DNA from: Candidatus Omnitrophota bacterium
Lineage (GTDB): Bacteria; Omnitrophota; Gorgyraeia; Duberdicusellales; 4484-171
Direction: 5' to 3'
DNA length: 64,000 nt
Assembly (NCBI GenBank): GCA_021735655.1
Contig: JAIPGM010000005.1
Span: 45,461-109,460 of the forward strand
In this document: positions 35,142 to 52,135 of the stretch, one piece after another
Numbering within the stretch: position 1 is the stretch's first letter
Layout of the letters: the number at the start of each line of letters is the position of its first letter
Notes under the pieces: model-generated
Databases searched by the model: none
What the model saw: only the letters and a program-made list of their open reading frames with translations
What the model was told of the DNA's origin: nothing
Position numbers and translations under genes: made by a program

Positions 35142-35837
35142 TCACCATAATGTATTAACAACAGTATAATTCCAAATAAAATAAATCCCAACAAGTATGA
35201 ATATAATGCCCGTAATCTTCCTCGTGTATAATTCTAGCACCGCTACTTTATGGAACCATTTCGAAAAAGAAGTAACACCCGCAGCAATTCCCAAGGCAAA
35301 TACAACTACAGGAATACCTGTACCTATACCATAGAAAAAAGGTAAAATAATCCCATGAGGACTCTTTAAAGCAAGAGGGATTAAGCTGCCGAAAAATAGG
35401 GCTGCCGCTATTGGACAAAAAGATAAAGCAAACACTGCCCCAAGAACAAAAGCCCCCCTGGCTCCTGATTCTGACAATGCTGTCTGCTTGTCTTTAGAAA
35501 TTGAGAATCTCAAAGCATTTATTTTTAGTATATCTAGCAAAGACAATCCAACCATTAGCAAAATAGGACCCAAAATCTTATTCATGTATTTCTGCAAAAA
35601 ATTAGCTACTATCGGAATACTAACCAAAGAAGTTATGATAATAGATCCTAACACCGCATAGGTAAGCATACGCCCAACAGTATAAGCAAGGCTTGATTGC
35701 AATACTTGTTTTGGATGATTTATTCTTTTTGATAGAAATGATATAGCCGCTATATTTGTAGCAAAAGGACAGGGACTTATTGAGGTGAGAATTCCAAACC
35801 ACAATGCAGAAACCAATGGTAGCACAATTTCAATCAT
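35142..35837 (-). CDS. ccdA: CcdA/DsbD-family transmembrane thiol-disulfide electron transporter
   Basis: Six TMs with membrane-embedded Cys in TM1 (SPCPF) and TM4 (SFCPIAA), typical of DsbD_2/CcdA. Confidence 0.7.
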   Translation of the reverse strand: MIEIVLPLVSALWFGILTSISPCPFATNIAAISFLSKRINHPKQVLQSSLAYTVGRMLTYAVLGSIIITSLVSIPIVANFLQKYMNKILGPILLMVGLSLLDILKINALRFSISKDKQTALSESGARGAFVLGAVFALSFCPIAAALFFGSLIPLALKSPHGIILPFFYGIGTGIPVVVFALGIAAGVTSFSKWFHKVAVLELYTRKITGIIFILVGIYFIWNYTVVNTLW

Positions 35838-35839
35838 CT

Positions 35840-36256
35840 CTAAATATCCTTTAAGTAAGTGCTAATTTCAGTTGTGACATAGTTAAAAAATTTCTTTTTA
35901 TCTCTTACATATTCCCATATTTTGGTAAGTTTCTTATGCTTTATTTCTTTGCCATCTTCAATGTATGAAATTACAAGAGTTTTTGTGTAGAGTTGGTATT
36001 CATCCACGAAATGCTTATTCTCTTTTTCTTCAATATTCACTTCCTTAAAGACCAACAAGCCCTTAACCAGCTCGTCTTTAAAATTTTCTTCAATTGCTTC
36101 CTTTGCATACTGCTCCATCTTATAACAAGTCACGCAACGTGCATTGCCGTGAAAATAATACGCAATTATTTTAGTATCTTCACCAAACGCCATTGTTATA
36201 TTTATTGATAACAATGCCATTAAAATAATTAGTAGAAAAATTTTCTTTATAGCCAT
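35840..36256 (-). CDS. Secreted thioredoxin-fold protein with CxxC (CVTC)
   Basis: Signal peptide. The CVTCYKM redox motif sits at the start of a helix in a Trx-like fold of ~138 aa. Confidence 0.65.
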   Translation of the reverse strand: MAIKKIFLLIILMALLSINITMAFGEDTKIIAYYFHGNARCVTCYKMEQYAKEAIEENFKDELVKGLLVFKEVNIEEKENKHFVDEYQLYTKTLVISYIEDGKEIKHKKLTKIWEYVRDKKKFFNYVTTEISTYLKDI

Positions 36257-36259
36257 GTC

Positions 36260-37216
36260 TTACATTACCAATTGAAGCATATTGAATAAATATCCTGTAA
36301 TAATTATCGCCACCGTTGTTATTCCAAAAAAGATTGTTATTAACTGCAATTTCATTGCTCTCCTTAAGATTATCGCTTCCGGAAAACTCAAGGCAGCTGT
36401 TGCCATCATAAAAGCAAGCGCTGTCCCCAGAGGAACACCTTTTTTAAATAAAACCACCGCTATCGGCACAATTGCCGCACAACTCCCATACATTGGCACA
36501 CCTAAAATAGCTGCGATAGGCACTGAAAATAGGCCTGTTTTACTTATTATTGTATGTATTGTTTCTTGGGGGATATAGTTATGGATAAAAGCACCTATAC
36601 CTACGCCTAATAATACCCACATCCATAATTTTTTTGTAATAGATTTGGCCTCATCTATTCCAAAAGCAAGCCTATCTCTTATCCCTTTGTAATCTACCTC
36701 TTTAATCACTTGTTTATCTTCTGAGACTAAGCCTTTAACAAGATATCTCTCTAAGTTCATCTTCCCCAGAATTACCCCTGAGAAAACACCTATTATAATT
36801 CCGCTTAATACATAAAAAAGAGTAATTTTCCATCCGAAAAAACCAAGCATTACTATTACCAAATACTCATTAATCAAGGGTGAAGTTATCAAAAAAGAAA
36901 ACGTAGCCCCTAAGGGGATACCGGCTTCTAAAAAACTCAAAAAAATAGGTATAGATGAACATGAACAAAATGGAGTTATTGAACCAAAAAGCGAAGCAAA
37001 AAGATTACCGAGAACTTTCTTCTTACCAATCCAATTCTTAATCTTATTCTGAGATATGTAAGTTCTAACAAAACCGATGGCTGCTATCATGAAAAACAAC
37101 AGTAATAGTATTTTAATAGCGTCATACAAAAAGAAATTAGTTACTCCTGCCAATCTTGACTCCGGGGCCAAGCCAAAAACAGAATAAACTAACCAATCTA
37201 TTATCGGCTGCAGCAT
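36260..37216 (-). CDS. Permease of the DUF318/ArsP family (TPFCSCS motif)
   Basis: About 8-10 TMs. The signature [13 protein letters not shown] is diagnostic of the predicted-permease family that includes ArsP. Confidence 0.7.
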
Positions 37217-37337
37217 GATTTGCCCTTATCTTTATCCTTACTCTCACAACAAGATTTTGTTTTTGCCTTTTTTTCCATCTTTTTATCTAACTTTTCCACT
37301 AACTTACAAAAAAAACCTTTCTTCTTTTTTGAATCAC

Positions 37338-37640
37338 TCATTTCTTCCTCCTTGTAATTTTGCAACATCCACCCTCAATCTTTATTGCTTTTATATTTAC
37401 CAATGCATCACCTATTTTACTATAGGCAGAAGCAATTATTCTTGAAAAGGTAGGCCGAGATATTTTTAGTTTCTTTGCTGCTGCTTCTTGCGTCAATCCT
37501 TCATAATCAGCCAATCTTACTGCCTCAAACTCATCTAAAGTCATGTGTACCCCGTCTAATTGATTAGATGACTTACACTGTGGCCTGAAACATCTTTCTC
37601 CTGGCTCACATTTAACCCATCTGGTCTTTTTCGGTCTCAT
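37338..37640 (-). CDS. DUF134/UPF0251-type small DNA-binding protein (sigma-70 region-4-like HTH, C-terminal Cys pair)
   Basis: N-terminal MRPKKTRWVKCEPG..RCFRPQ pattern is typical of the family. HTH (LTQEAAAKKLKISRPTFSRI). C-terminal GGCCK. Confidence 0.6.
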   Translation of the reverse strand: MRPKKTRWVKCEPGERCFRPQCKSSNQLDGVHMTLDEFEAVRLADYEGLTQEAAAKKLKISRPTFSRIIASAYSKIGDALVNIKAIKIEGGCCKITRRKK

Positions 37641-37650
37641 AGCTACCTCT

Positions 37651-37680
37651 TTATGTTATGAACATATGTTCATAACATAA
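37651..37680. promoter_or_regulatory. Perfect 30-bp palindrome TTATGTTATGAACAT|ATGTTCATAACATAA, 11 bp upstream of the DUF134 operon start codon (candidate operator)
   Basis: Exact 15+15 inverted repeat, verified base by base. Position is consistent with a promoter or operator. Confidence 0.6.
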
Positions 37681-37710
37681 TATCAGCCAAAACCGCTCAT
37701 GTCAAAAAAA

Positions 37711-37739
37711 ATATCCCGAAGGAAAAATCTTCGGGATAT
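37711..37739 (-). terminator. Rho-independent terminator of the MBL-rhodanese gene
   Basis: Stem ATATCCCGAAG / CTTCGGGATAT with an 8-nt T-run on the minus strand, ~110 nt after the stop at 37850. Confidence 0.7.
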
Positions 37740-37849
37740 TAAAAAATAAATATAAGCTCTAATCCAAAACTATTAAAATTATTTACCGATTATTACCTCC
37801 CACAACCTGTAACCATGTTAGCTTAATTCTTCTAAATCTTTCACCTGAA

Positions 37850-39091
37850 TCATTGACTGATTGAACAAGTTCCACCGCCGATTTTCGACTTGTATATCTT
37901 TTTGTTATAAGGAAGCTTCATCAGCAACATTCCCATAAGGCAACTATTAGTTACCCCGGCAAAAATTAAAGCACAAGCAACCCATATTGAAATCCAAATA
38001 AAACCACTATGTAAAAAGTAAGCTAAAACTATCCCTAACAACATCAAAATTCCAGCAACAACTCTCACTTGTCGCTCCAAAGACACCGAAGACTCCCCTT
38101 TGAGGACCGGAAATTTCTGCTTTTGCCAGGCAATTAAGCCTCCCTTCATTACTTTAACCGAAACAATGCCAGACTGCAATAACATATCAGCAGCCATCGG
38201 AGAACGGTTTCCGGTACGACAAAACACTATATACGATCGATCAGTCTGACTTAAATCTTTTATTTTAGAATTCAACATATCTATTGGAATATTGATTGAA
38301 TCCTTAATATGGGACTCATTAAACTCTAATGCTGAACGCACATCTAAAAACTTCAAATTAGAGTCTTTAGAAGCATACTCTTTAGCTTCACCAGCTGAAA
38401 CCATCTCTAAGGTCGTAGCTTCCCCTTTCTGATTAACCCTAATGATATTATCAATATTAAATGGTTTAGGAAGCTGCTTTGAACGAGCGTCGCTGACAAA
38501 CTTATCTTTACTGATTTGGCGCATAAAAGGATTATTATTTTTTTCCTTGGCAATAGTAGATGAAACCTTCCCGTTGTAGTCGTGCGAAGGAAAAATAATA
38601 GTGTCTCCCGGAAAATTCTTAAACCTCTGTAAAGTTTCAAACATTGCTTCCGGAGACCCATTTTGAAAATCGGTTCTCCCGACACTTCCGATCAGAAGAA
38701 CGTCACCGGTAAATAATCGACCCTCTCCGTAAATAGCTATGGTATCATCGGTGTGACCAGGAGCATATACAACCTTAAACTGCTTTGTTGCTAAAGCTAT
38801 AGTATCCCCATCTTTAAGCTTTTGATCAACTACTTCGGAAATTACTTTTTCGTGCATCAAAACAGGTACTTTAAGCAATTTCTTCAAATTTGCCGCTAAA
38901 GAAAAATGATCAGCATGAGTATGGGTATCGATTATATACTTTAAGTTTAGTTTCTTTTTTTTAAGATAATTGAGATAGTCTTCCTGAAGGCTTATATGTG
39001 GATCGATAACTAAGGCTTGATTTTGCGAGCCTAAAATATAAGAATAGCAACTTCCAGCAGTAAATTGTTTCATTGAAAAATCTTTATTCAT
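37850..39091 (-). CDS. Fusion protein: MBL-fold (persulfide dioxygenase/glyoxalase II-like) + rhodanese + C-terminal two-TM DUF2892-like domain (CstB-like)
   Basis: HTHADHFS metal motif. Rhodanese active-site loop FCRTGNRS. Hydrophobic C-terminal ~70 aa. Confidence 0.7.
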   Translation of the reverse strand: MNKDFSMKQFTAGSCYSYILGSQNQALVIDPHISLQEDYLNYLKKKKLNLKYIIDTHTHADHFSLAANLKKLLKVPVLMHEKVISEVVDQKLKDGDTIALATKQFKVVYAPGHTDDTIAIYGEGRLFTGDVLLIGSVGRTDFQNGSPEAMFETLQRFKNFPGDTIIFPSHDYNGKVSSTIAKEKNNNPFMRQISKDKFVSDARSKQLPKPFNIDNIIRVNQKGEATTLEMVSAGEAKEYASKDSNLKFLDVRSALEFNESHIKDSINIPIDMLNSKIKDLSQTDRSYIVFCRTGNRSPMAADMLLQSGIVSVKVMKGGLIAWQKQKFPVLKGESSVSLERQVRVVAGILMLLGIVLAYFLHSGFIWISIWVACALIFAGVTNSCLMGMLLMKLPYNKKIYKSKIGGGTCSISQ

Positions 39092-39394: not shown

Positions 39395-39708
39395 ACTCAC
39401 CTCCTTCTAGATTATTAAACTTCTATTTATTTTATCGCATGGATTTTTCCTGTCAAATAATTAAAAAGAATGTTAAAGTCAAGCCTTTATATCTTACATT
39501 ACGGCAACTTTTTAACTACTATGTCAAATGTAAAAGTGCTGACCCCTTCAGGACGACAGGCAAAAAAATACCCCCCATCAAACAACAGAAAAGCAACAAC
39601 TACAAGCTCCTTGTCTAAGTCTATACCCATTATTCTTCCTAAAATACAAATTTATCAATTTATCTATAGATGTTGACCAACCCCTCCGCCTTGGTATAAT
39701 AATATCGA

Positions 39709-41112
39709 ATGAAAAACAAGATAGCTATTATTGGTGCCGGGGTTGGCGGCTTAGCTACAGCTGCCCGCTTAAGCTTTAAAGGCCACCCGGTAGAAGTCTA
39801 TGAAAAACTTACCTGTTGTGGCGGCAGAGCCAATATCATAGAAGACAAAGGGTTTAAGTTTGATACCGGGCCTTCTTTTGTGATGATGCCTGACTTCTTT
39901 AAAGAAGTCTTTGACTACTGCCAAGAAGATATCAAAGCTTATCTGGACTTAAAAGTCCTGGATAAAAATTATAAAATATTTTATCCTGACGGCGATTCGC
40001 TTACTATCCATAAAGACAATCAAAAAACCGAAGCTGAACTGGAAAGGATAGAACCGGGAAGCTCTAAAGGCTATAAAAACTTTATTGTTGAAACCGGTAA
40101 AATCTATAAAGCCGTAGTTCCTCTGCTCTATCGCTGTTTCCGGCCCCAGGATGCCTTTAATCCGGCTTACTGGAAACTGATCAACAAACTGCATCTGGGA
40201 AAATCTTACTGGCAACTGGCAAAAAAGTTCTTTAAATCCGATAAACTCTGCTACGCTTTTACCTTTGAAGCTATGTTTATCGGCGTCTCCCCTTTTAAGA
40301 CTCCGGCCTTTTACAGTGTGATCGGTTACACTGACCAAGTCGATAAAATCGCTCACCCCATAGGCGGAATGTACCAAATACCTAAAGCTTTAGAAAAAAT
40401 GGCTTTGAAATTCGGAACAAAGTTTAACTACCAACGTGAAATAACCTCGCTAGAAGAAATCAAGGCTGATAAATTTGTGATCAATGCCGACTATTCTTTT
40501 GCTCAAAGTAAACTACTGGGAAAAAAGATCCCTGATTACGACTATTCCTGCTCAGTGCTCCTGTTCTACTGGGGAATGAAAAAGAAAATACCCAACCTCG
40601 AGCATCACAATCTTTTCTTTGCTCAAGACCTAAGAAATAACCTGAAAAATATTTTCCAAAACGGTATTGTGGGCGATGATTTTTCTTTTTATATTCACGT
40701 TCCCACAGTCACTGACCCCTCACTGGCCCCTGAAGGAAAGGATATCCTCTATATTTTAGCTCCGGTGCCGAATCTTAAAACATTTAAAGGGGATTTCAAA
40801 ATCTACGAAGATAGAATAAGAAAAAAAGTTATTGCTAAAATTGAATCACTGTGCGGATTTAAAATTGAAGATTCAATTGAAACCGAACACAAGTTTTACC
40901 CCGAAGATTTTATAAAAAAATACAGTATACTCTACGGGGCTACTTTTGGCCTAGCTCACAGCTTAAAACAAAGTGCTTTTTTCAGACCGCCTAACTACAC
41001 CTCTAAACAAAAAAACATTTATTTTGTAGGGGCCAGCACCCAGCCTGGGGGCGGACTACCTCCAGTTATTGCCTCATCACGAATAGTGGCTGATTTGATT
41101 ACTAAGAGCTAA
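39709..41112 (+). CDS. crtI: Phytoene desaturase family oxidoreductase (CrtI/CrtN-like)
   Basis: N-terminal FAD fold IAIIGAGVGGLATAARL. 467 aa. Amine-oxidase-like C-terminal region (YFVGASTQPGGGLP). Confidence 0.75.
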   Translation: MKNKIAIIGAGVGGLATAARLSFKGHPVEVYEKLTCCGGRANIIEDKGFKFDTGPSFVMMPDFFKEVFDYCQEDIKAYLDLKVLDKNYKIFYPDGDSLTIHKDNQKTEAELERIEPGSSKGYKNFIVETGKIYKAVVPLLYRCFRPQDAFNPAYWKLINKLHLGKSYWQLAKKFFKSDKLCYAFTFEAMFIGVSPFKTPAFYSVIGYTDQVDKIAHPIGGMYQIPKALEKMALKFGTKFNYQREITSLEEIKADKFVINADYSFAQSKLLGKKIPDYDYSCSVLLFYWGMKKKIPNLEHHNLFFAQDLRNNLKNIFQNGIVGDDFSFYIHVPTVTDPSLAPEGKDILYILAPVPNLKTFKGDFKIYEDRIRKKVIAKIESLCGFKIEDSIETEHKFYPEDFIKKYSILYGATFGLAHSLKQSAFFRPPNYTSKQKNIYFVGASTQPGGGLPPVIASSRIVADLITKS

Positions 41113-41953
41113 CCCCGATCAAGGCCCTTATTTTCTCAATTATTTTTTTGGTGACTTTATCAGGAGTAGAAGCTCCGGCGGTTATTCCGATTCTTTTAGC
41201 ACCTTTAAACCATTCTTTTCTTAAGTCATTATCTGACTGAACCCAATGGCTTTTCTTATTAACTGACCGTGATATTTCATATAGGCGCCGAGTATTAGCG
41301 CTGGTCTTTGAACCGATAATAACAACTACATCATTCTTAAGCGGCAAAATTCGAATCTCAGCCTGTTTTCTTCGGGTAGGAACACAGATGGTGTTAAAAA
41401 ATTTTAAATCCTTAATCTGAACCCTTAAACTTTTAACTATTTTTTTTACCTTCTCGCTATTTTGAGTTGACTGCACTACCATCCCGGCTTTTTTTATTTT
41501 TTTGAGTCGGGCTAAAGATAACTTATTGCTAATAATCAAAGGTTTACGCTTAAGGTTTCCCACAATGCCTTTAACTTCATGGTGATTCTCATCTCCGATA
41601 ATAATTACCACTCTGCCTTCTTTTTCCAGGCCTTGAGCTATTTTATGGATTTCTTTAACCATCGGACAAGTAGCATCAATCAGCTTATAACCTAAGCCTC
41701 TAGCCTGCTTCATGGTCTTGAGGCTGCTCCCGTGAGCCCTTATTAGCAAAACTTTACCTTTACCATTTTTTAATACTTTTACCTTTTTTATTCCTGAGGC
41801 GGCAATATCCCGGCAAACATCTTCGTTGTGAACAATATCACCGAGCATCTCTACCAAAGGATAATCTCCGGCAGACTTTAAAGCAATGTCTATTGCTCTT
41901 TTTACACCAAAACAAAATCCGGCTGATTTAGCTAGATTGATTTTAGGTTTCAT
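41102..41953 (-). CDS. ispH: 4-hydroxy-3-methylbut-2-enyl diphosphate reductase
   Basis: N-terminal AGFCFGVKRAI. Three conserved Cys regions and an HNE motif. 283 aa. Stop overlaps the crtB-like start. Confidence 0.85.
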   Translation of the reverse strand: MKPKINLAKSAGFCFGVKRAIDIALKSAGDYPLVEMLGDIVHNEDVCRDIAASGIKKVKVLKNGKGKVLLIRAHGSSLKTMKQARGLGYKLIDATCPMVKEIHKIAQGLEKEGRVVIIIGDENHHEVKGIVGNLKRKPLIISNKLSLARLKKIKKAGMVVQSTQNSEKVKKIVKSLRVQIKDLKFFNTICVPTRRKQAEIRILPLKNDVVVIIGSKTSANTRRLYEISRSVNKKSHWVQSDNDLRKEWFKGAKRIGITAGASTPDKVTKKIIEKIRALIGVSS

Positions 41954-42813
41954 CGGTATTTTCCTTCAATAATTACCTTGGCTAAGAGCCCCAATTTACC
42001 TAAGCGGCTCACCGAAGCCCGCTGGAAAAACAAATCGTAATTATTCTTTTCAATCTGATCAAGGATCGCCCCATATACCTTGCTCATCGCACAAACTACA
42101 AATCTGGAGCGCTTATCGGTTATCATCTTAATCCCTTCATCAGCCAATTGATAGTAATTTCTGGCCCGCCGAATCTGATATTTAATAAAAGTGATAAACT
42201 TATCGCTAATTTTTTCTGAACTCAAATCCTCCTGGCTCAAGCCAAAACTTTTTAGTTCATCCTGAGGTAGGTATATTCTGCCTAAGCCTAAATCCTCTTT
42301 GACATCGCGCAGGATATTGGTAAGCTGCATGGCAATACCCAGATCAACTGCCGGCTGTTTTGCCTTATTGTCCCGATAACCAAAAACCTCAAGCATGATC
42401 AAACCCACCACTCCGGCAACTTTATAGCAATAATCGTATAGCTGCTTGAAATCAGCATAACTTTTCTTTTCCAAATCTAAATGCATACCTTTTATCAATT
42501 GATCAAAATAGTTCTTGGGTATATTATATTTATCTACTGTCTGCTTAAAAGCTAAAAGCAAAGCTTCCCGGGAGCAATCCAAGCCATACGCAGAATTTAT
42601 CTTTTCTTCAATCCGGCTTAATTTTTTTAAGCCGCCGTTTGCGTTATCTACGCTGTCGTCGCTTATCCGACAAATGGCATATATACTGTAAGCGGCACGC
42701 CTTTTCTCTAAACCTAGAAATTTCGAGGCAAAATAGAAGGTTTTGGCGTGTTTTTTAGTCAGCTTTTCAGCCTCTTTAAATCCTTGATCAATGACTTTAC
42801 CCATTGAAACCAT
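41950..42813 (-). CDS. crtB: Phytoene/squalene synthase family protein (CrtB-like)
   Basis: Asp-rich motifs ICRISDDSVD and later D-rich region. YCYKVAGVVG. Confidence 0.75.
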   Translation of the reverse strand: MVSMGKVIDQGFKEAEKLTKKHAKTFYFASKFLGLEKRRAAYSIYAICRISDDSVDNANGGLKKLSRIEEKINSAYGLDCSREALLLAFKQTVDKYNIPKNYFDQLIKGMHLDLEKKSYADFKQLYDYCYKVAGVVGLIMLEVFGYRDNKAKQPAVDLGIAMQLTNILRDVKEDLGLGRIYLPQDELKSFGLSQEDLSSEKISDKFITFIKYQIRRARNYYQLADEGIKMITDKRSRFVVCAMSKVYGAILDQIEKNNYDLFFQRASVSRLGKLGLLAKVIIEGKYR

Positions 42814-42852
42814 TTTATATTACCGACCCCAAAAAGCCAACAAGAATTTACC

Positions 42853-43197
42853 TTGCTAAATCCTAGATTGCTAACTAAAATATATCTGATGTCAGATTAT
42901 TTAAAGGTTTTAATCCTTTCAGTTCTGGTTCCTTTTGCCTGCAGCTTCTACCGGCCACTGAGGTTTTATGAAAATCTAAAAGCCTTGCTTGTTAGTGTAG
43001 GCTTAGTGGTCCTGATTTTTGGAGCCTGGGACATCTTAGCTACAGCCCGCGGCCACTGGCATTTCAATCCTCAAGGAGTAGGATCGCTAAAAATAATTAA
43101 CTTACCCCTAGAAGAAGTATTATTCTTTATAGTTATTCCTTTTTGCTGTATTTTTACCTGGGAAGCAATAAACTATATTAAAAATAAAATCCAATGA
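42853..43197 (+). CDS. Lycopene cyclase domain protein (heterodimeric cyclase subunit, CrtYc-like)
   Basis: ~110-aa, 3-TM protein with the PLEEVLFFI motif of the lycopene cyclase domain. Overlaps its partner. Confidence 0.65.
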   Translation: MLNPRLLTKIYLMSDYLKVLILSVLVPFACSFYRPLRFYENLKALLVSVGLVVLIFGAWDILATARGHWHFNPQGVGSLKIINLPLEEVLFFIVIPFCCIFTWEAINYIKNKIQ

Positions 43198-43481
43198 AAG
43201 AATATACTCTCTTAGCTATAAGTTCGGTGGTTTTAACTATTATCTGGAATAATTTAAGCGGAGTAAAGCTGTTTAAAAAGAAAATTTTTTATTTATTTCT
43301 TTTTATAATCTTTCTGTTTAAACTCCTAGTCAATGGAGCCCTAACTAAAACTATTGTTTTATATAATCCCGATTTCTTTTTGGGCTTAAGACTGGGCACC
43401 ATCCCCCTGGAAGACTTTCTTTTTGGCTTTAGCATGGTCACTCTCTCTATAATATTCTGGGAACAGTTTAAAAAGCAATGA
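43194..43481 (+). CDS. Lycopene cyclase domain protein (partner subunit, CrtYd-like)
   Basis: 95-aa membrane protein with the IPLEDFLFGF motif. Translationally coupled to both the previous and next genes. Confidence 0.65.
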   Translation: MKEYTLLAISSVVLTIIWNNLSGVKLFKKKIFYLFLFIIFLFKLLVNGALTKTIVLYNPDFFLGLRLGTIPLEDFLFGFSMVTLSIIFWEQFKKQ

Positions 43482-44338
43482 AAAAAATATTTTTTATTCT
43501 TATTCTTTTAATATTCTTCTCCCTGCCATTGTTTGCTTTGGACTGGATAAATCTCCACCAACAGGCCTCGACTCAAACTCTGAGTAAAAATCCTCAATCT
43601 GAAAACGAACTATACATCCAGGGATTGGTTTATCTAAACGAACATAAAGACAATGAAGCTAAAGAGGTCTTCGACAAGCTTATTTCCCAAAACAACAACC
43701 TCTTTGAAGCCCGCTGGGGCCTAGCTGAAGTCTTGCGGCGTAAAAAAGCCTTAAAACAAAGCCAGGAAATACTTGATCAAATAATCCAAACTAATCCCGG
43801 TTTCTCACCGGCCTACATAACTCTTGCCTATATAAAGTATACCCAAACTAAATTCAATGAAGCCGCAAAACTGGCTTTAAAAGTCATAAAACAAGGCCCT
43901 GAGGCATCCGATATTGATAACTTTAGCCGGGCTTACCTTATTTTTGCCGGCTCCAAAGGCTTAATCGCTTCAAAGGGCGGACCGCTCTCAAAACTGATAA
44001 ATGGAACTCAGGTATTACCGAACTTAAAACGGGCTGAAAAGCTACGGCCGGACGCTCCGGAAGTCTTATTTGGCCTAGGCAACTTTTATTTCTTGGCCCC
44101 TGGTATTGCCGGCGGTAATCTGGACAAAGCCCAAGACTATTTGAAACGCTGTCTTAAAAAAGATCCCTCGTTTGCCGATGCCTATGTAAGGCTGGCTCAA
44201 GTATATAAAGCCAAAAACAATGCCGAACAGTATGAGCTCTATCTTAAAAAAGCAAAAGCCATTGATCCGCTTAACGAACTGCTCAACGATGAGCTCTCGG
44301 GAGAATGTAAGTTTAATTGCCAGACAGTAGAAGAATAA
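43478..44338 (+). CDS. Secreted TPR-repeat protein
   Basis: Signal peptide. TPR-like repeats. Confidence 0.55.
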   Translation: MKKIFFILILLIFFSLPLFALDWINLHQQASTQTLSKNPQSENELYIQGLVYLNEHKDNEAKEVFDKLISQNNNLFEARWGLAEVLRRKKALKQSQEILDQIIQTNPGFSPAYITLAYIKYTQTKFNEAAKLALKVIKQGPEASDIDNFSRAYLIFAGSKGLIASKGGPLSKLINGTQVLPNLKRAEKLRPDAPEVLFGLGNFYFLAPGIAGGNLDKAQDYLKRCLKKDPSFADAYVRLAQVYKAKNNAEQYELYLKKAKAIDPLNELLNDELSGECKFNCQTVEE

Positions 44339-44348
44339 ACCCGGTGGT

Positions 44349-45389
44349 TTAAGACTTTAGCAGTTTTTCCGGATATTTAATTAAAAAATCCTTATAGTTG
44401 CCGCTGATCGAAGACGAGTTTATCAAAGCTTGTGATCTTTTAACCAAAGAATTAATTTCTCTCTCAGCATAATCCAAGGCTCCGGATTCAGTAATAATCC
44501 GACGCACCTTTACCAAATCGTTTTGGCTTACCTTACTTTTAGCCAATAATCTTTTTATCGACATCCTAACAGCTTTGCTGCTATTCTGATAAGCTTGCCA
44601 GATAAGCAGGGTCTTTTTTGACTCCTGTAGATCAGAAAGGGTTGATTTACCGATTTTCTGCTCATCGCCAAACATACCTAAAATGTCATCTCGTATCTGA
44701 AAAGCCCTTCCCAAAAATATTCCAAACTTAAATAGTTTATCGATTTCTTTTTTAGGGGCTCCGGCTAATATCGCACCGCTAGCTAAAGGCGTAGAAAAAG
44801 TATAACAAGCAGTCTTATAATCATATATCCGATAAATATTGTCTTTAGTTATCTTTTCAATCGAATCTATTCCACCCAAAAGCTCAATAAACTCTCCTGA
44901 ACCAGTGTAGATAGCCGCCTCGATAAATTTTTTTAAAGCCTTTTCCTTGCGTTCCGGGTCCTCTCTTATCGCCAGAAAAGCTTTTATAGCAATAGCATAC
45001 ATTACATCACCGATAACTATACTTAAATCTTGACCGCTAAATTTAACCTTCTTATAGTTTTTTAAATATTTATCCAATAATTTATGCATTGAAGGCTTAC
45101 CACGACGAGTATCAGACTTATCAATTATATCGTCATGGACAAGCATGAAATCATGCATCAGCTCTATAGCCAAAGCACTGCGGTATAATCCGGCAGGTAA
45201 TTTCTTACTAAATCCCGAATAGCCGACCACAAAAAGTATCGGCCTGATCCGTTTTCCTTTACGCAGGATAAAATCTTTGATTGATTTAAACAGCAGCGGT
45301 GAGATTTTGCTCAAAGAATAGGTTTTATCTATATCGGTAGCGAACTTTTTAAGCTCAAGCTCAACTTTCTTTTTTATTTTATCAGGCAT
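44349..45389 (-). CDS. Polyprenyl diphosphate synthase (GGPP or longer-chain)
   Basis: First Asp-rich motif LVHDDIIDKSDTRRG. Second motif FQIRDDILG. 346 aa. Confidence 0.8.
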   Translation of the reverse strand: MPDKIKKKVELELKKFATDIDKTYSLSKISPLLFKSIKDFILRKGKRIRPILFVVGYSGFSKKLPAGLYRSALAIELMHDFMLVHDDIIDKSDTRRGKPSMHKLLDKYLKNYKKVKFSGQDLSIVIGDVMYAIAIKAFLAIREDPERKEKALKKFIEAAIYTGSGEFIELLGGIDSIEKITKDNIYRIYDYKTACYTFSTPLASGAILAGAPKKEIDKLFKFGIFLGRAFQIRDDILGMFGDEQKIGKSTLSDLQESKKTLLIWQAYQNSSKAVRMSIKRLLAKSKVSQNDLVKVRRIITESGALDYAEREINSLVKRSQALINSSSISGNYKDFLIKYPEKLLKS

Positions 45390-45411
45390 TTATTTATGCT
45401 ACCATATAAAC

Positions 45412-46308
45412 ATGGGCAGTTCAAATATTAAAAACTATACAAGAGCCTTAAGGCTTCCCTTTGTCACTGCTAGCCTATTTCCTTTTATTTTCGGATCATT
45501 ATTGAGCTTCTCCTCCTGGCTAAACTTTATTCTCGGCTTAACTTGCGCTATCGCCACTCACCTAGGAGCCAATCTAATCAATGACTATGCCGACTCAAAA
45601 TCCGGAGCTGACTGGCAAGATACAAAGTTTTACCGCTTTTTCGGCGGCTCTAAATTAATTCAGGAAGGAGTCTTTTCGGAAAAGTTTTACCTAAAAAATG
45701 CGATTTTTGCTTTTTTACTGGCCTTAGCCTGTGTTCTGATTCTAGCAGCACGATTTAAAAATTTATCAGTGTTAGGTTATTATTTATTTATCTTGTTTTT
45801 GGGCTTTTCCTATTCCCATAAACCGCTTAAATTTTCTTACCACCGCCTCGGTGAATTGATTATTTTTCTTCTTTTCGGACCGGCTCTGGTCATGGGTGCT
45901 TTATTTATCCAAACCCAACATTTTCCTACCTTGCAAGGTTTTCTGCTTTCAATACCCTTAGGAATATTTACCACGGCGATTCTTTTTGCCAATGAAATAC
46001 CTGATTATCTAGATGACCGAAAAGCTAATAAATTTACTTTAGTCAGCTTGTTCGGACCGAAAAAATCATATATATTTTATTATCTTCTCTTGCTCGTGGG
46101 CTTTTCCTCAATAATTATTAATGTTATCCTAGGCTATCTGGACTGGCCGGCGCTTTTGGCTCTTGCCTTAGCCTTACTTGGTTATAAAGCCGGCAAAATA
46201 TTAAAAGAAAACTACGCCGACAAAACAAAACTAATAAATTCGGCTAAAATGACCATAGCTTTACATAGCCTGGTAAGTATAATTTTAATTTTAAGTCTGA
46301 TCTTATGA
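45412..46308 (+). CDS. UbiA-family prenyltransferase (MenA-like or lycopene-elongase-like)
   Basis: About 8 TMs. NDYADSKSGAD Asp-rich motif. 298 aa. Confidence 0.7.
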   Translation: MGSSNIKNYTRALRLPFVTASLFPFIFGSLLSFSSWLNFILGLTCAIATHLGANLINDYADSKSGADWQDTKFYRFFGGSKLIQEGVFSEKFYLKNAIFAFLLALACVLILAARFKNLSVLGYYLFILFLGFSYSHKPLKFSYHRLGELIIFLLFGPALVMGALFIQTQHFPTLQGFLLSIPLGIFTTAILFANEIPDYLDDRKANKFTLVSLFGPKKSYIFYYLLLLVGFSSIIINVILGYLDWPALLALALALLGYKAGKILKENYADKTKLINSAKMTIALHSLVSIILILSLIL

Positions 46309-47372
46309 AAAAAATTGTTATTGTCGGTGGTGGCTTTGCCGGAATTTCAGCCGTAAAAACCCTGGCTAAATCTAAACTGGAATTAGTTCTTATCGATAAA
46401 AAGCAAAGTTGGGATTTTCTACCCTGCCTTCCCGATATCCTCAGCCAAAAAATAAATCCTGTATTTCTTACCGTAAATTTAGCTGATTTTATTAAAAAAC
46501 TTGGCGGTAAATTTATCAATCAAGAAGTAAAATCGGTAGATTTGGCTCAAAAGAATCTTAAGCTAGATTCTCAAGACCTAAGCTATGACTATCTGCTTCT
46601 TTGTAGCGGAACTAAAACTAATTTTTTCGGTAACTCGGAGATGAAAAGACAGGCACTAAAACTAGACTCAATAGCAGACGCCGAGCTTATCCTTAGCCGC
46701 CTAGAAAAAGATGACTTTGATAAAATAGTCGTTATCGGTGGTGGTTATACCGGAATTGAAATTGCCACTAACCTGCGACAGCGTCAGGCTAAACCGATCA
46801 GCATTATCGAAAAATCACCCAACCTGCTCGGTACTCTGCCTCAATGGATGAAAGATTACGTTAAAGCTAATCTTGATAGATTAAATATTGAAGTCCTGGC
46901 TTCTTCTGAAATCAGCCAGATTCCCAAAAGAACTTTGCTGATCTGGTCAGCCGGAGTAAAATCAGACGACTACATCTTTAACTTAAAACAAAACAAAACT
47001 CCCCAGGGAAGATTAAAGGTGGATAAATACTTAAAAATAACCGACAACTGCTTTGTGGCCGGCGACATAGCTAACTTTGATTATCGCAGCCGGCCCTTAA
47101 GAATGTCTATACAATTTGCTATTACTCAAGGCAGACTAGCTGCAAGAAATATCATAAACAGCATCAAAGGCAAACCTCTAACCGAATACAAACCTAAGGA
47201 TTTAGGCTATGTTATACCCATGCCCAACAACAAATCCTGCGGTTTAGTCTTGGGCTTGAGAGTAAAAAGCCGCTTAGCCACTTTTCTCCACTATTTTATG
47301 TGTATTTTTCGCTCGGAAAGTTTTAAAAATAAGCTGGGAATAATTAAAAATCTTATAAAAGGAGGTGCCTGA
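46305..47372 (+). CDS. NDH-2-like pyridine nucleotide-disulfide family FAD oxidoreductase
   Basis: Two dinucleotide folds: VIVGGGFAGISA and VVIGGGYTGIEIA. 4-nt overlaps with the UbiA and DoxX genes. Confidence 0.7.
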   Translation: MKKIVIVGGGFAGISAVKTLAKSKLELVLIDKKQSWDFLPCLPDILSQKINPVFLTVNLADFIKKLGGKFINQEVKSVDLAQKNLKLDSQDLSYDYLLLCSGTKTNFFGNSEMKRQALKLDSIADAELILSRLEKDDFDKIVVIGGGYTGIEIATNLRQRQAKPISIIEKSPNLLGTLPQWMKDYVKANLDRLNIEVLASSEISQIPKRTLLIWSAGVKSDDYIFNLKQNKTPQGRLKVDKYLKITDNCFVAGDIANFDYRSRPLRMSIQFAITQGRLAARNIINSIKGKPLTEYKPKDLGYVIPMPNNKSCGLVLGLRVKSRLATFLHYFMCIFRSESFKNKLGIIKNLIKGGA

Positions 47373-47785
47373 TGAAAAGCTATGCGACTCTGCCTCTGCG
47401 CCTGGCTCTTGGAGCAGTGTTTATTTTTCACGGCCTACAAAAAGCCTTTGGGCTATTTGGCGGACCAGGAATAAAAGGTTTCTCAGGAATGCTTGCTGGA
47501 CTAGGCTTTCCTTTTTCGGAAATCATGGCAATTCTAGTTGCCTACGTTGAGCTAATCGCCGGAATCCTTTTAGTTTTGGGGGTTCTAACAAGAATCTCTT
47601 CTCTATCACTTTTAATAATTATGATAGTTGCCCTGCTTAAAGTCCATCTAGCTAAAGGTTTTTCGATTATGAACGGTGGTTATGAATATGATCTGGTTCT
47701 AATTTTGATTTGTCTTTCGCTAATCATCTCCGGAGGCGGAAAATTAAGTTTAGGCCAAAAACTAAATAAATTAAAAAATCTTTAA
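47372..47785 (+). CDS. DoxX family membrane protein
   Basis: Four TMs. N-terminus LRLALGAVFIFHGLQK is typical of DoxX. Confidence 0.7.
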   Translation: MKSYATLPLRLALGAVFIFHGLQKAFGLFGGPGIKGFSGMLAGLGFPFSEIMAILVAYVELIAGILLVLGVLTRISSLSLLIIMIVALLKVHLAKGFSIMNGGYEYDLVLILICLSLIISGGGKLSLGQKLNKLKNL

Positions 47786-47802: not shown

Positions 47803-48132
47803 TTAAATCTTACAGCCACAATTTTTTCTTTTTAATATCTTTACCTGCTCTTTATAGGAATCTATAAATATACACTGCTTTTTTGAGCCGGTAGCTAATT
47901 TTCTATCAAGGTCGCTCTTATGCCTATATCCTCTATTGGCCATCTCCGCAACAAGTTTATTGTGCCGCAAATATAACGAAGCCAATTTACACTTCCATCT
48001 AAGCGTCTCCGGATGCCGAGAGTATCCTTTTTTATTCTTAGTTAGAATAGACCAAATAGCATGTAATTCCCTATGCTCACCTAGAAGATGATTGCGACAA
48101 AGTTTTTTTGGAGGTATATCCCAAATTCTCAT
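47803..48132 (-). CDS. Pyrimidine-dimer DNA glycosylase (T4 EndoV-like, Pyr_excise) family small protein
   Basis: N-terminus MRIWDIPPKKLCRNHLLGEHRELHAIW follows the MR.W..P..L....L..EHRE pattern of the family. Confidence 0.45.
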   Translation of the reverse strand: MRIWDIPPKKLCRNHLLGEHRELHAIWSILTKNKKGYSRHPETLRWKCKLASLYLRHNKLVAEMANRGYRHKSDLDRKLATGSKKQCIFIDSYKEQVKILKRKNCGCKI

Positions 48133-48261: not shown

Positions 48262-50010
48262 TTAAAAACTAACTTTGTAAGTAACCGATCCGCCAAGTTC
48301 GTAAAAGTCTTCTTTAAGCTGAGTTTCTAAATCAACCAAAAGAGTGGTATTTTTCTTGTTGAAGAATTCAAAACGGGAACCGACATTAAAGCTTGAGGGT
48401 GCCGGTCGGTAGCCTGAAGTTTCAAAAGAAGCCCCACCGCCCTCAAAACTGGCTAAAGACTGCTGTTTTTCATTCACCACACTGTAGAAATAACGAAAAC
48501 GAAGCTCGGGAGTGAACAGCATCTTCTCGCTCTCAAAAACCTTACTCAACCTAAGACCTCCGCCCAGCTGTAAAGTTTGGTAATTCTGAGACTCAACGCT
48601 GAGATTCAGCGCTCCGGCTCCAGTCTCAGTATAATCATCGAGCTCGAGATTAGTGTAGCTTAAAGCTAAAAGCGGAATGATCTCGAAATTCTTCTTTTTC
48701 AACTTATAGCCGCCTTCCAGGTAAGCTGAGAGCTGCTGGCCATCGTAATCAGCATTAGCCGTCCTTTCGATAGAACCGACAGTTACCTTTCTCGAATTAT
48801 TATATTCACTGTAGCCGTAAGTCAGCACTGCATCAAACAGATAAGGCTTATCCGGATGGCTATATTCTCCGTAAAGGCCGGTCTGATAACTTGTTATCCG
48901 AGTGCGCTCTTCGTTATCTTTTGACCTGATCTTACCTTCGCTAAACCCTTGGTCTATACCCAAGCGTAAAGAATTATTCAAAAACCCGTGGTCAAAGCCG
49001 ATAACATTACCCCAAAGCTTAGCCCGGTAACCCTTACTTGCACCACGCTCACCCTGCCGGGCATAGCCACCATAAGACTGAAACCAGATATCGTTATTAA
49101 AAGAATCCTCTAATGAGTCTTCCTCAAGGCTATCTTCCTCGATCTTTGAATCTTGTAAACGCAATACCGTGGTCCTGACAAATTTATCCAGGGAACCGTT
49201 TGAGGTATTGATTACTCCCCTGTTAGCAGAAAGGCCCATGTCGTTCTCGGCCGAAGCTACGCCACCACCAGATAAAGCTTCGAGAGTATTAAGAATCGTG
49301 GTCATGTCCGAAGAAGGATTGCTTATATTATCGAGAACCCGACCGACAGCAGCTGAATTAGAGCTGGAAGCCTGGCTTTCAAACCCAGAGGTTGACCGGT
49401 CAGCAGTTAAAACCAAGTTGCCTCCGGAATTTGACGCGCTAAATGACACCCGAGAGTTACTTGAGGTAACTGTAGTCGGAGCATTCCCTATTCCTGAACC
49501 ATTAGTATCGATAATAGTAAAGGTTGCATTTGACGGTATATAGATATCATTGCTAACTGTAACCGCCACTGTACTTGCTGTATTTACCACTGCTGCGGCA
49601 CCAGAAGTTATCCTGCCTGAGGTTGAAGGCGTATCAACGGTCAGGTTAAGGGTAGTCCCTGATCCTTGAGTATAAATGCCGGTACCGCCAAGAGTAAGAG
49701 TATTGGCTCCCAAGCCCAAACTGCCGGCATTATCTAAAGTAAGGTTTCCGGTAATTGTGCGGCTGCCAGTAAGATTTAAAGTTCCGCCGTCTCCTGCCGA
49801 ATCTACAGTAGTAGTTACGGCCGCCAGGTTATGCCCTAGAAAAAGTGTACCCTCCCCGGGCAGACGTCTGACTGCGGCTCGATTCGCTATGAATTCCGCA
49901 TAGAAGTCACCAGACCCAGCAAAAATCACGCCAGAATACGCCTGATTCCGACGGATTCCGAGGATCCGAAACAAAGCCCTGCCTTTGCCCTTGAAGCTCA
50001 AGGGTGCCAA
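48262..50010 (-). pseudogene. Autotransporter-like outer-membrane protein (Gly/Thr/Ser-rich passenger + C-terminal beta-barrel ending in F); N-terminus lacks a signal peptide, possibly 5'-truncated next to the IS
   Basis: C-terminal ~280 aa has alternating amphipathic beta strands and a terminal aromatic. Passenger has TLNLTG repeats. First 60 aa are non-hydrophobic and lie in the higher-GC DNA adjoining the transposase. Confidence 0.5.
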
Positions 50011-50139
50011 AATAGCCTTAAATACGCCTTAAAATAATGAGAATTTTTGAGGGGTTTTATGCCCAGAAAGGGCTATATGCTGTTTAGCGGGGTGCAGTTA
50101 ATATGCGACCGGTTTTTAAGGTAGGAAAAGTCGCCTAAC

Positions 50140-51295
50140 TTGTTGTAGAATGGACACTTACTCAAAACAACACTTTTTGCCATGAAAGGAGCTTTTGTAT
50201 CATGAACCACACCCAATCTTATACCATAAACGGCTGTATATTCCAAGAGTTTTTACTGCTTCTGGGCAGGGTTGTCCACAGTGACCTGATCCGGCAGATG
50301 GAGTACCTGAAAGTGGAGAATGAGGTTCTGCGGACCAAATGCCCGAAACGGATAACCACAAGCCCGGCCGAGAAACGTAAGCTCATCAAATACGGCCTTG
50401 CCTGCAGGGGCAGAATAAAAGGCATTATATCCATCGTAAGCTATTCTACCTTCAGGCGCTGGGTAAATGGCGATATCCGCAATAAATATAAGCCTTCCAA
50501 GCAAGGCACGCCCAGAAAGACCACACAGGAAATAATAGACCTTATAGTACGCCTTGCCCGGGAAAACTGCGACTGGGGCTATGGCCGGATAATGGGCGAG
50601 TTAAAGAAACTAAACATCATCAGACTGTCCCGGAATACCATAAAGGCCATAATGCGCCAGAACGGCCTTGATCCGGCACCAATAAGGGCCCATGACTCAT
50701 GGGATGCCTATATAAAGCGCCATTTCGAAACCTTATGGGCTTGTGACTTCTTTACCAAGACCATCTGGACAGCCATGGGGCCCAAGCTATTCCATGTATT
50801 ATTCTTCTTGAATATCAGAACCCGGAAGGTCCATATAGCCGGTATAACAGAAAAACCTAAAAAGGAATGGGTGATGGAAGCGTCAAAGACGGTATCGTTT
50901 CTATTCAAAGATAAGACCAAGAAGCTCCTTATTCGAGACGGTGATGCTAAATTCCCGAAAGAGTTCAATAGCCTTTTCAAAGACTGTAATACAAAAGTCA
51001 AAAAGATACCGCACCGGTCACCGAATCTTAACCCTTATGCCGAAGGCTTCGTGGGAACCATAAAAAGGGAATGCACGGATCACTTCTTCGTGTTCGGCGA
51101 ACGTCACTTCGAATACCTTGTCCGGGAATACGTCAAATACTATAATACCAAACGTCCGCATTCCGGCCGGGATAACCGGCCCCTTGAATATCATTCGGAG
51201 AAATCAACCGGCAAGCTCAAATGCGACTCACGCCTGGGTGGGATGATTAAGCATTATTATTGGGGGTAACGGAAGGTCACAGTAACTCATCCTCA
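50140..51295 (+). mobile_element. IS element (IS481/IS3-like, single DDE transposase ORF); ends approximate
   Basis: Transposase ORF with a local rise in GC relative to flanks. Terminal inverted repeats could not be defined by eye. Confidence 0.4.
50202..51269 (+). CDS. DDE transposase with N-terminal HTH/leucine-zipper and rve integrase core domain
   Basis: AAAGGAG RBS. rve-type motifs (..WACDFF.., RDGDAKF, NTKRPHSG). 355 aa. Codon usage and GC differ from neighbours. Confidence 0.8.
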   Translation: MNHTQSYTINGCIFQEFLLLLGRVVHSDLIRQMEYLKVENEVLRTKCPKRITTSPAEKRKLIKYGLACRGRIKGIISIVSYSTFRRWVNGDIRNKYKPSKQGTPRKTTQEIIDLIVRLARENCDWGYGRIMGELKKLNIIRLSRNTIKAIMRQNGLDPAPIRAHDSWDAYIKRHFETLWACDFFTKTIWTAMGPKLFHVLFFLNIRTRKVHIAGITEKPKKEWVMEASKTVSFLFKDKTKKLLIRDGDAKFPKEFNSLFKDCNTKVKKIPHRSPNLNPYAEGFVGTIKRECTDHFFVFGERHFEYLVREYVKYYNTKRPHSGRDNRPLEYHSEKSTGKLKCDSRLGGMIKHYYWG

Positions 51296-52101: not shown

Positions 52102-52135
52102 ATTAATTCCATGATATAAAGGTTGTTTTCAAAGT

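Follow-up and report, generated by a model that had tools for sequence, protein, structure and literature searches.

The window analysed here is a stretch of 64 kb of contig JAIPGM010000005.1, from a Candidatus Omnitrophota metagenome-assembled genome (MAG) of ~38% GC, and it carries a ten-gene isoprenoid cluster at positions 39709-47785. Open reading frames (ORFs) were mapped over this window and the encoded proteins were scanned with Pfam and NCBIfam models. Comparison with related loci showed that the cluster is built of two nested modules. The core consists of a polyprenyl diphosphate synthase gene and a ubiA-flavoprotein-doxX operon, often together with a tetratricopeptide repeat (TPR) protein gene and ispH, while the carotenoid genes crtI, crtB and a pair of split lycopene cyclase genes form an optional add-on. 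The UbiA-family protein of the core is predicted to be a MenA/UBIAD1-like aromatic prenyltransferase which belongs to a distinct subfamily and is not a standard MenA. For the whole locus, we give an even chance to the explanation that a cyclic C40 carotenoid pathway and a salvage-type prenylquinone system are organised around one geranylgeranyl diphosphate (GGPP)-type synthase.

All the genes named in the original prediction made on this DNA were recovered by the ORF map and the two scans, and 39709-47785 proved to be the exact outer limits of the cluster. That list was incomplete in one respect, as it left out the TPR gene at 43478-44338. The cluster opens with crtI (39709-41112, + strand), which encodes a flavoprotein of the phytoene desaturase family (PF01593; TIGR02734, 398.7 bits for a cut-off of 238). 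Then, on the minus strand, come ispH, for 4-hydroxy-3-methylbut-2-enyl diphosphate reductase, which catalyses the final reaction of the MEP pathway (41102-41953; TIGR00216, 251.6 bits for a cut-off of 187.85), and a crtB-like phytoene synthase gene of the SQS_PSY family (41950-42813; PF00494, 260 bits). The plus strand carries the first half of the split lycopene cyclase (42889-43197; 102 aa from its ATG), the second half (43194-43481; 95 aa), both matching PF18916 and TIGR03462 above cut-off, and the gene of a secreted TPR-repeat protein of 286 aa with a signal peptide and matches to several TPR Pfam families (43478-44338). The short-chain polyprenyl diphosphate synthase gene (44349-45389; PF00348, 180.8 bits) lies on the minus strand. 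It is followed on the plus strand by the gene of the UbiA-family prenyltransferase (45412-46308; ten MenA models, all below cut-off), that of a 355-aa NDH-2/FSP1-like flavoprotein of the Pyr_redox_2 family (46305-47372; PF07992, 121.7 bits) and that of a small membrane protein of the DoxX family (47372-47785; PF07681, 74.8 bits).

The translational coupling that had been claimed for ubiA, the flavoprotein gene and doxX is real. The stop codon of ubiA and the start codon of the flavoprotein gene overlap in ATGA, and the flavoprotein gene overlaps doxX in TGATG, with AAGGAGG just upstream. The crtB and ispH genes overlap by 4 bp, ispH being downstream in one operon, and ispH converges on crtI with an overlap of 11 bp. 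The two cyclase halves overlap by 4 bp, as do the second half and the TPR gene, and the synthase gene and ubiA are divergent, with a 22-bp spacer between them. From these overlaps and couplings, the cluster is therefore divided into five transcription units: crtI, crtB-ispH, cycA-cycB-TPR, the synthase gene, and ubiA-flavoprotein-doxX. The crtI gene stands alone on the plus strand and is preceded, at 39673-39700, by a strong sigma-70-like site (11/12 positions matched). In the scan as a whole, promoter-like sites showed only a modest excess (30 against a shuffled expectation of 22.6 ± 4.7), and the terminator scan gave a count equal to the shuffled expectation.

A scan of one genome per species (GTDB r232) detected relatives in 163 species, nearly all of them Omnitrophota, and the best 80 loci were kept. 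Among these, 46 loci were considered informative, having at least 6.5 kb upstream and at least 2.6 kb downstream of ubiA. Two approaches were applied to the 80 loci, namely the mapping of ten window proteins and an assumption-free clustering of all ORFs, and they gave a concordant picture. No fewer than 14 further Omnitrophota species, among them the one with the complete genome CP070807.1 (locus L001, with the full gene set), share all ten genes with identical order and orientation, which is far beyond chance. The ubiA gene was present in 80/80 related loci, hence in 46/46 informative ones. The synthase and flavoprotein genes each occurred in 42 of the 46 informative loci (~91%), doxX in 31, the TPR gene in 25, ispH in 22 (48%), crtB in 15, crtI in 10 and the cyclase pair in 9. 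Gene positions and strands relative to ubiA were always those of the window in the informative loci; crtI, where present, was always at about -5.8 kb from ubiA, and the complete carotenoid set (crtI, crtB and the cyclase pair), found in ~20% of loci, always kept the gene order of the window.

These counts and positions therefore define the two nested modules. The loci L002 and L003 illustrate the reduced state, with ispH-synthase and ubiA-flavoprotein-doxX and zero crt genes. Full clusters alternate with reduced ones on the UbiA tree, much as in a deletion series, which fits an ancestral full cluster from which the carotenoid genes would have been lost repeatedly. The nesting also bears on ispH, whose location between crtI and crtB had been described as unusual. 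The gene is indeed embedded there, but this position is conserved across the phylum and is explained because ispH belongs to the conserved isoprenoid core; in some loci it remains in the cluster without any crt gene.

For the UbiA protein, the original prediction had left two readings equally open, one of them being C50 carotenoid synthesis as in actinobacteria, with a CrtEb-type lycopene elongase. The actinobacterial frame does not apply, because the host is an Omnitrophota MAG of ~38% GC. To place the protein, a hidden Markov model (HMM) of the clade was built from 16 Omnitrophota UbiA sequences. The references were E. coli MenA and UbiA, four plasmid-borne MenA proteins, one of them encoded inside a menB-menA-menC operon, and UBIAD1 from the solved structure 8djk. 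The plasmid collection yielded no actinobacterial CrtEb, and a haloarchaeal LyeJ orthologue was used instead (L085:6446-7273, in a crtB-crtI-prenyltransferase-cruF operon found through a crtI search). The clade HMM gave 67-110 bits with the five MenA references, 75.5 bits with UBIAD1, 12.5 bits with LyeJ and 4.1 bits with E. coli UbiA. By neighbour-joining (NJ), the Omnitrophota clade was monophyletic in 200/200 bootstraps; it grouped with MenA and UBIAD1, to the exclusion of LyeJ and UbiA, in 197/200, stood outside the sampled MenA and UBIAD1 group in 176/200, and joined LyeJ in 1/200.

Database matches pointed the same way. All the significant NCBIfam matches of the UbiA protein were MenA-type models, UBIAD1 was its sole solved relative (E = 1e-20), and the nine matches of a tblastn search against the plasmid collection all fell on MenA genes or unannotated DNA. 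The protein is identical to a database entry from a Candidatus Omnitrophica MAG annotated as prenyltransferase and has hundreds of homologues at 55-77% identity, almost all from Omnitrophota; JGI names these homologues 1,4-dihydroxy-2-naphthoate (DHNA) octaprenyltransferase. If the cluster were one for C50 carotenoids, the UbiA protein would be an elongase of the CrtEb/LyeJ type, adding C5 units from dimethylallyl diphosphate (DMAPP) made through IspH, and the cyclase would be of the CrtYe/Yf type. Such a scheme would account for the proximity (within 2 kb) of a split cyclase pair and a UbiA-family gene inside one isoprenoid cluster, would give a use to the DMAPP made by IspH, and agrees with the differences between the UbiA protein and a standard MenA. 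However, it conflicts with the HMM scores and with the single bootstrap in favour of LyeJ. Furthermore, all 80 loci keep ubiA but only ~20% have crtI and the cyclase genes (~20-30% for the carotenoid genes overall), and ubiA is always in an operon with the flavoprotein and DoxX genes, the cyclases being on another transcription unit. Neither the window nor ~1.2 Mb of related loci contained another UbiA-family gene. Because of the MenA/UBIAD1 placement, the exclusively MenA-type models and the lack of a second UbiA gene, the lycopene-elongase reading is not supported, and we consider it very improbable.

The partner proteins of the core are in line with a prenylquinone function. The best solved relatives of the synthase were farnesyl diphosphate (FPP) and GGPP synthases, long-chain synthases scoring lower. 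The pattern F-[MLIV]-L-[VI]-H-DDxxD, with Phe at position -5 and no insertion, was found in 70/70 orthologues. An aromatic residue at position -5 of the first DDxxD, without a two-residue insertion, is the signature of type-I (archaeal-type) GGPP synthases. Judged by this C15-C20 signature, the enzyme is most likely a GGPP synthase, which agrees with phytoene synthesis as well as with a quinone tail of C20, and it probably supplies both modules. For the flavoprotein, the best solved relatives were the NDH-2 of Caldalkalibacillus (4nwz, 9.8e-24) and AIFM2/FSP1 (7xpi, 6.5e-23). It contains two GxGxxG motifs (GGGFAG and GGGYTG) and the segment IQFAITQG, which holds the NDH-2-like motif Q-x-A-x-x-Q-G. 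The DoxX protein showed three to four hydrophobic segments in a hydropathy scan. Both NDH-2/FSP1-type enzymes and DoxX-family proteins are linked to quinones; a literature search combining DoxX, prenyltransferase and menaquinone returned nothing relevant.

The second reading of the original prediction, a MenA-like menaquinone enzyme, took the right direction, as the protein sides with MenA and UBIAD1. The NDYxD motif on which it relied is present as NDYAD (residues 57-61). It belongs to a first Asp-rich motif, NDYADSKSGAD (residues 57-67), that aligns with NDYGDAVKGSD of E. coli MenA and follows the MenA-like pattern N-D-x-x-D-x3-G-x-D. Nevertheless, this reading was too simple in view of the MenA cut-offs, the second motif, the C20-type synthase and the gene lists of other Omnitrophota genomes. 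With NF004751, the best MenA model, the score was 118.9 bits for a cut-off of 264; with TIGR00751, it was 83.1 bits for a cut-off of 102.15, and two other Omnitrophota members also failed (range 75-83). In addition, five extra residues, with an invariant Trp, are inserted in the loop that follows the first motif, a feature specific to the clade.

In the strict form of that reading, the window would encode a normal MenA and a respiratory NDH-2, with DHNA supplied by men or futalosine (mqn) genes located elsewhere in the genome. The position of the protein within the MenA/UBIAD1 clade and the JGI name of its homologues agree with it, as does the fact that some fused relatives described below just pass TIGR00751. 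Complete menaquinone modules are also reported for some Omnitrophota (Velamenicoccia, Zapsychrales); Seymour et al. 2023 (PMC10066038) reported menaquinone pathways only in some Velamenicoccia. In published metabolic reconstructions of the phylum, only scattered quinone genes are mentioned, and carotenoids are not. Against an ordinary MenA stand the scores just given, below all the cut-offs for the window protein and the two other Omnitrophota members (75-83 for 102 bits in TIGR00751), the changed second active-site motif, and a synthase signature of C15-C20 and not of C35-C45.

The genomic context also speaks against a normal respiratory pathway. No gene resembling men or mqn genes or quinol oxidase genes was found in the 64-kb window, and the conserved neighbours of ubiA in the 80 loci included none of them either. 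Two other Omnitrophota genomes (58 and 231 of PMC10066038) are covered by KEGG Orthology (KO) lists in the portion of the source data available to us. In this portion, K02548 (menA), K03885 (ndh), K02291 (crtB) and K03526/K03527 (ispG, ispH) are listed for both. The same portion does not list K01661, K02549, K02551 and K02552 (menB/C/D/F), K11784 and K11785 (mqnC/D), K03183 (menG), K00330 (nuoA) or K00425 (cydA). On the whole, an ordinary respiratory menaquinone enzyme appears unlikely, and a salvage-type system, in which the head group comes from outside the cluster, is preferred.

The departure from MenA extends well beyond the Omnitrophota. A profile search of 1.84 billion representatives (50% identity level) with the clade profile retrieved about 500 representatives at E <= 1e-30, a set that may include ordinary MenA. 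The second motif in the form N-[EQ]-x-P-D was found in nearly all of the top 150 representatives. Thus, N-[EQ]-x-P-D appears to mark a broad subfamily, not a local oddity, reaching Marinimicrobia and Asgard archaea. A PNPOx-like domain, predicted to bind flavin mononucleotide (FMN), is fused N-terminally to the prenyltransferase in archaea of the Heimdall and Hodarchaeales types and in Marinimicrobia (P0228, P0246 and P0252, L095 8001-9389; P0250 and P0297, L096 8001-9335), P0250 and P0297 having a 145-aa N-terminal extension without a Pfam match. With 103-118 bits in TIGR00751, the PNPOx-fused members are just above its cut-off of 102, and for this reason NCBI names them DHNA octaprenyltransferase.

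Other flavin-related links were observed in this subfamily. A UbiA-ApbE fusion of 614 aa, with N-E-V-P-D as second motif and a C-terminal ApbE flavin transferase domain, was found on unassigned metagenome contigs (L093 7456-9845, L094 3015-5404), where it is preceded by a nitroreductase gene with a 4-bp overlap. In L001 (CP070807.1), the flavoprotein gene is separated from doxX by a PNPOx gene. With these PNPOx, ApbE and nitroreductase links, the subfamily thus shows a recurrent association with flavin-dependent redox proteins of several folds. Its members are now annotated as generic prenyltransferase or MenA, and the flavoprotein links flag them for reannotation. The Marinimicrobia locus L095 contains in addition, at 2254-5109, a second UbiA-family gene followed by those of a small ferredoxin and a geranylgeranyl-reductase-like flavoprotein, which may form a saturated prenyl-lipid pathway.

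Turning to the carotenoid module, the two ~100-aa lycopene-cyclase-domain proteins noted earlier on this DNA were confirmed as such. The first and second halves scored 41.5 and 55.8 bits with PF18916 (cut-off 27) and 67.5 and 40.6 bits with TIGR03462 (cut-off 39.4). An upstream TTG would extend the first half to 114 aa; NCBI annotates the 102-aa ORF. The motif L-P-[LI]-E-E-x-L-F-F is conserved in 14 orthologues of the first half and I-P-x-E-D-F-x-F-G-F-S-M in 17 orthologues of the second, the LPLEE and IPLED cores (P-x-E-[ED]) being invariant or nearly so. A crude hydropathy scan gave three hydrophobic segments per half. With scores above both family cut-offs, the pair is predicted to form a heterodimeric cyclase of the CrtYc/Yd type. 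A homologue search with the first half returned 252 proteins, all from one Omnitrophota clade (59-73% identical among the 120 matches listed), so that it provided no outgroup for separating C40 from C50 cyclases. No match to the second half was obtained by tblastn in the plasmid collection. A literature search on the lycopene cyclase domain and UbiA gave nothing relevant; the Lipocone paper deals with carotenoid and UbiA contexts, yet for unrelated families.

The cyclase genes were found solely in loci that bear crtB, and with crtI too wherever the contig extends far enough. Because they occur only together with crtB and crtI, an omega-cyclic menaquinone, in which the cyclase would act on the quinone side chain, was rejected as the principal interpretation. 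A squalene/hopanoid route (HpnC/D/E) was rejected as well: there is a single SQS_PSY gene, and the amine oxidase is a CrtI-family protein, above the cut-off of that family and with only 35 bits for HpnE. The TPR protein, whose gene is coupled to the second cyclase half, has a single N-terminal hydrophobic segment (residues 4-22), and its gene is kept in many loci without any crt gene. In L014, L020, L048, L065 and L067, ispH and crtB lie beside the synthase gene, and neither crtI nor cyclase genes were found within 8 kb. Such crtB-only loci contain either a decaying pathway or a crtB-like enzyme used without desaturation.

The chain length of the carotenoid has also to be considered, as the crt genes might use FPP for a C30 (diapo) carotenoid or a product without rings instead of making a C40 carotene. 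The CrtI protein is 33-34% identical to staphylococcal and Niallia CrtI-family proteins and 28% identical to Pantoea CrtI, hence slightly nearer to the former. The crtB-like protein is below cut-off with the CrtB, HpnD and HpnC equivalog models, HpnD being its best NCBIfam match, and its best solved relatives are phytoene synthase and CrtM chains. The resemblance to CrtM-type enzymes favours C30, but this comparison is biased because the library of solved structures holds few true C40 CrtB. Moreover, the adjoining prenyl synthase has the GGPP-type pattern, and the strict co-occurrence with the lycopene cyclase pair fits C40 lycopene. A C30 or uncyclised product is consequently held to be improbable, and a C40 pathway is preferred for this module.

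Thus, in the explanation proposed for the cluster, IspH would supply isopentenyl diphosphate (IPP) and DMAPP. In the carotenoid module, the CrtB-like synthase would convert GGPP into phytoene, CrtI would convert phytoene into lycopene, and the heterodimeric CrtYc/Yd-type cyclase would produce a mono- or bicyclic carotene. In the core module, the MenA/UBIAD1-like prenyltransferase would link a naphthoquinol-type head group to a chain of C20 (or C15). This head group, for instance DHNA, menadione or a similar quinone, would come from outside the cluster and is probably taken up. The coupled flavoprotein would reduce the quinone with NAD(P)H, either before prenylation, so as to generate the quinol nucleophile, or afterwards, so as to keep the lipid quinol reduced, or at both steps. 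The DoxX protein would be a membrane partner that binds the quinol or passes it on. The product could protect the membrane from oxidation, or could accept electrons during fermentation as in the flavin-based extracellular electron transfer system (FLEET) of lactic acid bacteria.

Several observations weigh against this explanation. The phylogeny is an NJ tree with a single LyeJ sequence, from which actinobacterial CrtEb is left out. The flavoprotein (355 aa, for ~400 aa in solved NDH-2 chains) lacks, in the hydropathy scan, the hydrophobic segment or C-terminal membrane anchor of typical NDH-2 and weakly matches CoA-disulfide reductase models. The KO lists come from other Omnitrophota genomes, and head-group genes could lie beyond the 64 kb of the window; in those Velamenicoccia genomes which have complete menaquinone pathways, the clade protein could be an ordinary MenA. 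On the carotenoid side, the crtB-like gene passes no specific CrtB cut-off, so that its sequence is compatible with C30 as well as C40 products, and crtB is found without crtI in 5 of the 46 informative loci, which a simple carotenoid reading does not explain. Finally, the UbiA protein is below every curated MenA cut-off and its second motif is N-E-I-P-D-x3-D, whereas the five MenA references and UBIAD1 have N-N-x-R-D-x3-D. For these two reasons, its acceptor could be other than a naphthoquinol.

Such an acceptor might be a flavin-related compound, a phenolic or a lipid head group, and the flavoprotein and DoxX would then process the product. The replacement of N-N-x-R-D by N-[EQ]-x-P-D across 150 representatives, the loop insertion with its invariant Trp, the repeated ties to FMN-binding or FMN-transferring domains and related proteins (PNPOx, ApbE, nitroreductase) and the lack of head-group genes in the window and the 80 loci are all consistent with this possibility. 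Nevertheless, the closest characterised relatives all prenylate naphthoquinols, the NDH-2/FSP1-type and DoxX families are both linked to quinones, and no pathway for another acceptor is conserved nearby in the 80 loci. A non-quinone acceptor is therefore regarded as quite unlikely, and the naphthoquinol-type acceptor of the salvage system is retained.

Omnitrophota are widespread, uncultivated bacteria with ultra-small cells, often non-respiring, which may depend on hosts. In this setting, a further proposal can be made tentatively, although we find it rather doubtful at present. The core would be an undescribed salvage-type prenylquinone system by which a naphthoquinone from a host or a neighbour is reduced and given a C20 tail in ultra-small Omnitrophota, the quinol acting as an antioxidant in the membrane or as an electron sink, whether fermentative or extracellular. 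If this were true, the core would be a bacterial counterpart of both the vitamin K cycle of animals formed by UBIAD1 and FSP1 and FLEET, and the N-[EQ]-x-P-D subfamily would be a distinct class of reductase-coupled quinone prenyltransferases. An operon spread over the phylum would point to a testable dependency on the quinone head groups of neighbours. Its presence in genomes which seemingly lack both head-group synthesis and respiratory complexes would suggest a non-respiratory redox lipid.

The surroundings of the cluster were also inspected. Directly after doxX, the window contains a pyrimidine-dimer DNA glycosylase gene (47803-48132, - strand; PF03013, 95.9 bits). The same gene follows doxX in L002/L003/L017, L013 and L010. 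Beside carotenoid genes, it may hint at exposure to light or ultraviolet (UV) radiation, but a UV-protection theme is weak because the glycosylase adjoins the cluster in the loci of only four of the 80 related species. Recurrent neighbours in the 80 loci were nikR-cbiMNQO, a proton-pumping pyrophosphatase and HtpX. The commonest one downstream of doxX was the nikR-cbiM-cbiN-cbiQ-cbiO operon for a nickel/cobalt energy-coupling factor (ECF) transporter, present in L019, L056 and about 10-16 other Omnitrophota loci at +2.5 to +4.5 kb from ubiA. Upstream of crtI, the genes at 35142-39091 (- strand) encode a metallo-beta-lactamase-rhodanese fusion, a DUF134 protein, an ArsP-type permease and a DsbD-like membrane protein. 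They suggest sulfur or thiol redox functions and are not conserved beside the cluster in other loci.

On the downstream side, an autotransporter beta-domain protein and an rve_3 integrase are encoded at 48262-51269, where the GC content is 0.43-0.45 and not ~0.38 as elsewhere. This segment is probably a mobile insertion bounding the cluster. It is followed by a region of defence and mobile-element genes. A Dsr1 defence sirtuin is present as two ORFs (53046-55826 and 55823-56812, both on the - strand) with a 4-bp overlap. Its SIR2 part covers positions 9-283 of PADLOC Dsr1 (185 bits) and its 926-aa part positions 310-1225 (549 bits), the two-ORF state being either a natural split or a frameshift. 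A restriction-modification set, with an MvaI/BcnI-family endonuclease gene between two N6/N4 DNA methylase genes (57158-60527, - strand), is followed by the gene of an S24 peptidase (LexA or phage-repressor-like). Five ORFs of the same region, at 51277-53029 and 61086-63992 (- strand; 274, 297, 227, 139 and 497 aa), had no Pfam or PADLOC match. Far upstream, at 17558-21764 (- strand), two tandem GH130 (mannoside phosphorylase) genes beside that of a cupin-type mannose-6-phosphate isomerase look like a small mannan-utilisation unit.

When compared with known systems, the carotenoid genes resemble the C40 clusters with CrtYc and CrtYd of the Brevibacterium or Myxococcus type, in which adjacent, overlapping genes of ~100 codons with the P-x-E-[ED] motif are likewise found near crtB, crtI and a GGPP-type synthase gene. 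The Omnitrophota cluster differs from these by cyclases which form a clade of their own, by the coupled TPR gene, by its five transcription units and by the presence of ispH inside it. With the C50 clusters, either those of Corynebacterium (CrtEb with CrtYe/Yf) or the haloarchaeal LyeJ-CruF type, it shares a split cyclase and a UbiA-family gene in one isoprenoid cluster. However, the Omnitrophota UbiA protein lies outside the elongase clade and is conserved independently of the carotenoid genes, and there is no CruF-like gene.

With MenA, the prenyltransferase shares the fold family, the first motif N-D-Y-x-D-x3-G-x-D, a homologous G-x-x-x-I/M-Q loop and a sister position in the tree. It is set apart by the second motif, the 5-residue insertion with Trp, the C20-type partner synthase and scores below cut-off, and no men or mqn context was found around it. 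In animals, salvaged menadione receives a geranylgeranyl chain through UBIAD1, and the quinone form of vitamin K is reduced to the quinol by FSP1 (PMC11276079). The likeness to this pair is twofold, as the prenyltransferase has UBIAD1 for its sole solved relative, and FSP1 is among the best relatives of the flavoprotein and of similar length. By analogy with it, we infer that an antioxidant role in Omnitrophota is conceivable. Unlike the window protein, with N-E-I-P-D, UBIAD1 has N-N-T-R-D; the bacterial clade is outside the MenA and UBIAD1 group (176/200), and the animal genes do not form an operon.

In FLEET, the MenA-like prenyltransferase DmkA and the synthase DmkB work with a dedicated Ndh2, and fermentative Lactiplantibacillus uses exogenous DHNA (PMC9888254, PMC10746273). 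The FLEET loci of Listeria and Lactiplantibacillus and the Omnitrophota core, likened here by gene content and not by DmkA sequence, both unite in one locus a prenyltransferase with its own polyprenyl synthase and an NDH-2-type flavoprotein. The FLEET hosts are fermentative, cannot make the DHNA head group and use exogenous quinones. A further likeness is the ApbE domain fused in a distant member of the Omnitrophota prenyltransferase subfamily, this fusion being the only occurrence of ApbE; no conserved ApbE-, PplA- or EetAB-like family was seen among the 80 loci. In contrast to FLEET, those loci yielded no homologue of PplA, EetA/B or FmnA/B and have DoxX in their place, the synthase belongs to the short-chain type, and the flavoprotein has no transmembrane extension. 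The conserved core is thus a variant of known prenylquinone systems, and the carotenoid genes, of ordinary chemistry and ordinary apart from their phylum, extend carotenogenesis to the Omnitrophota.

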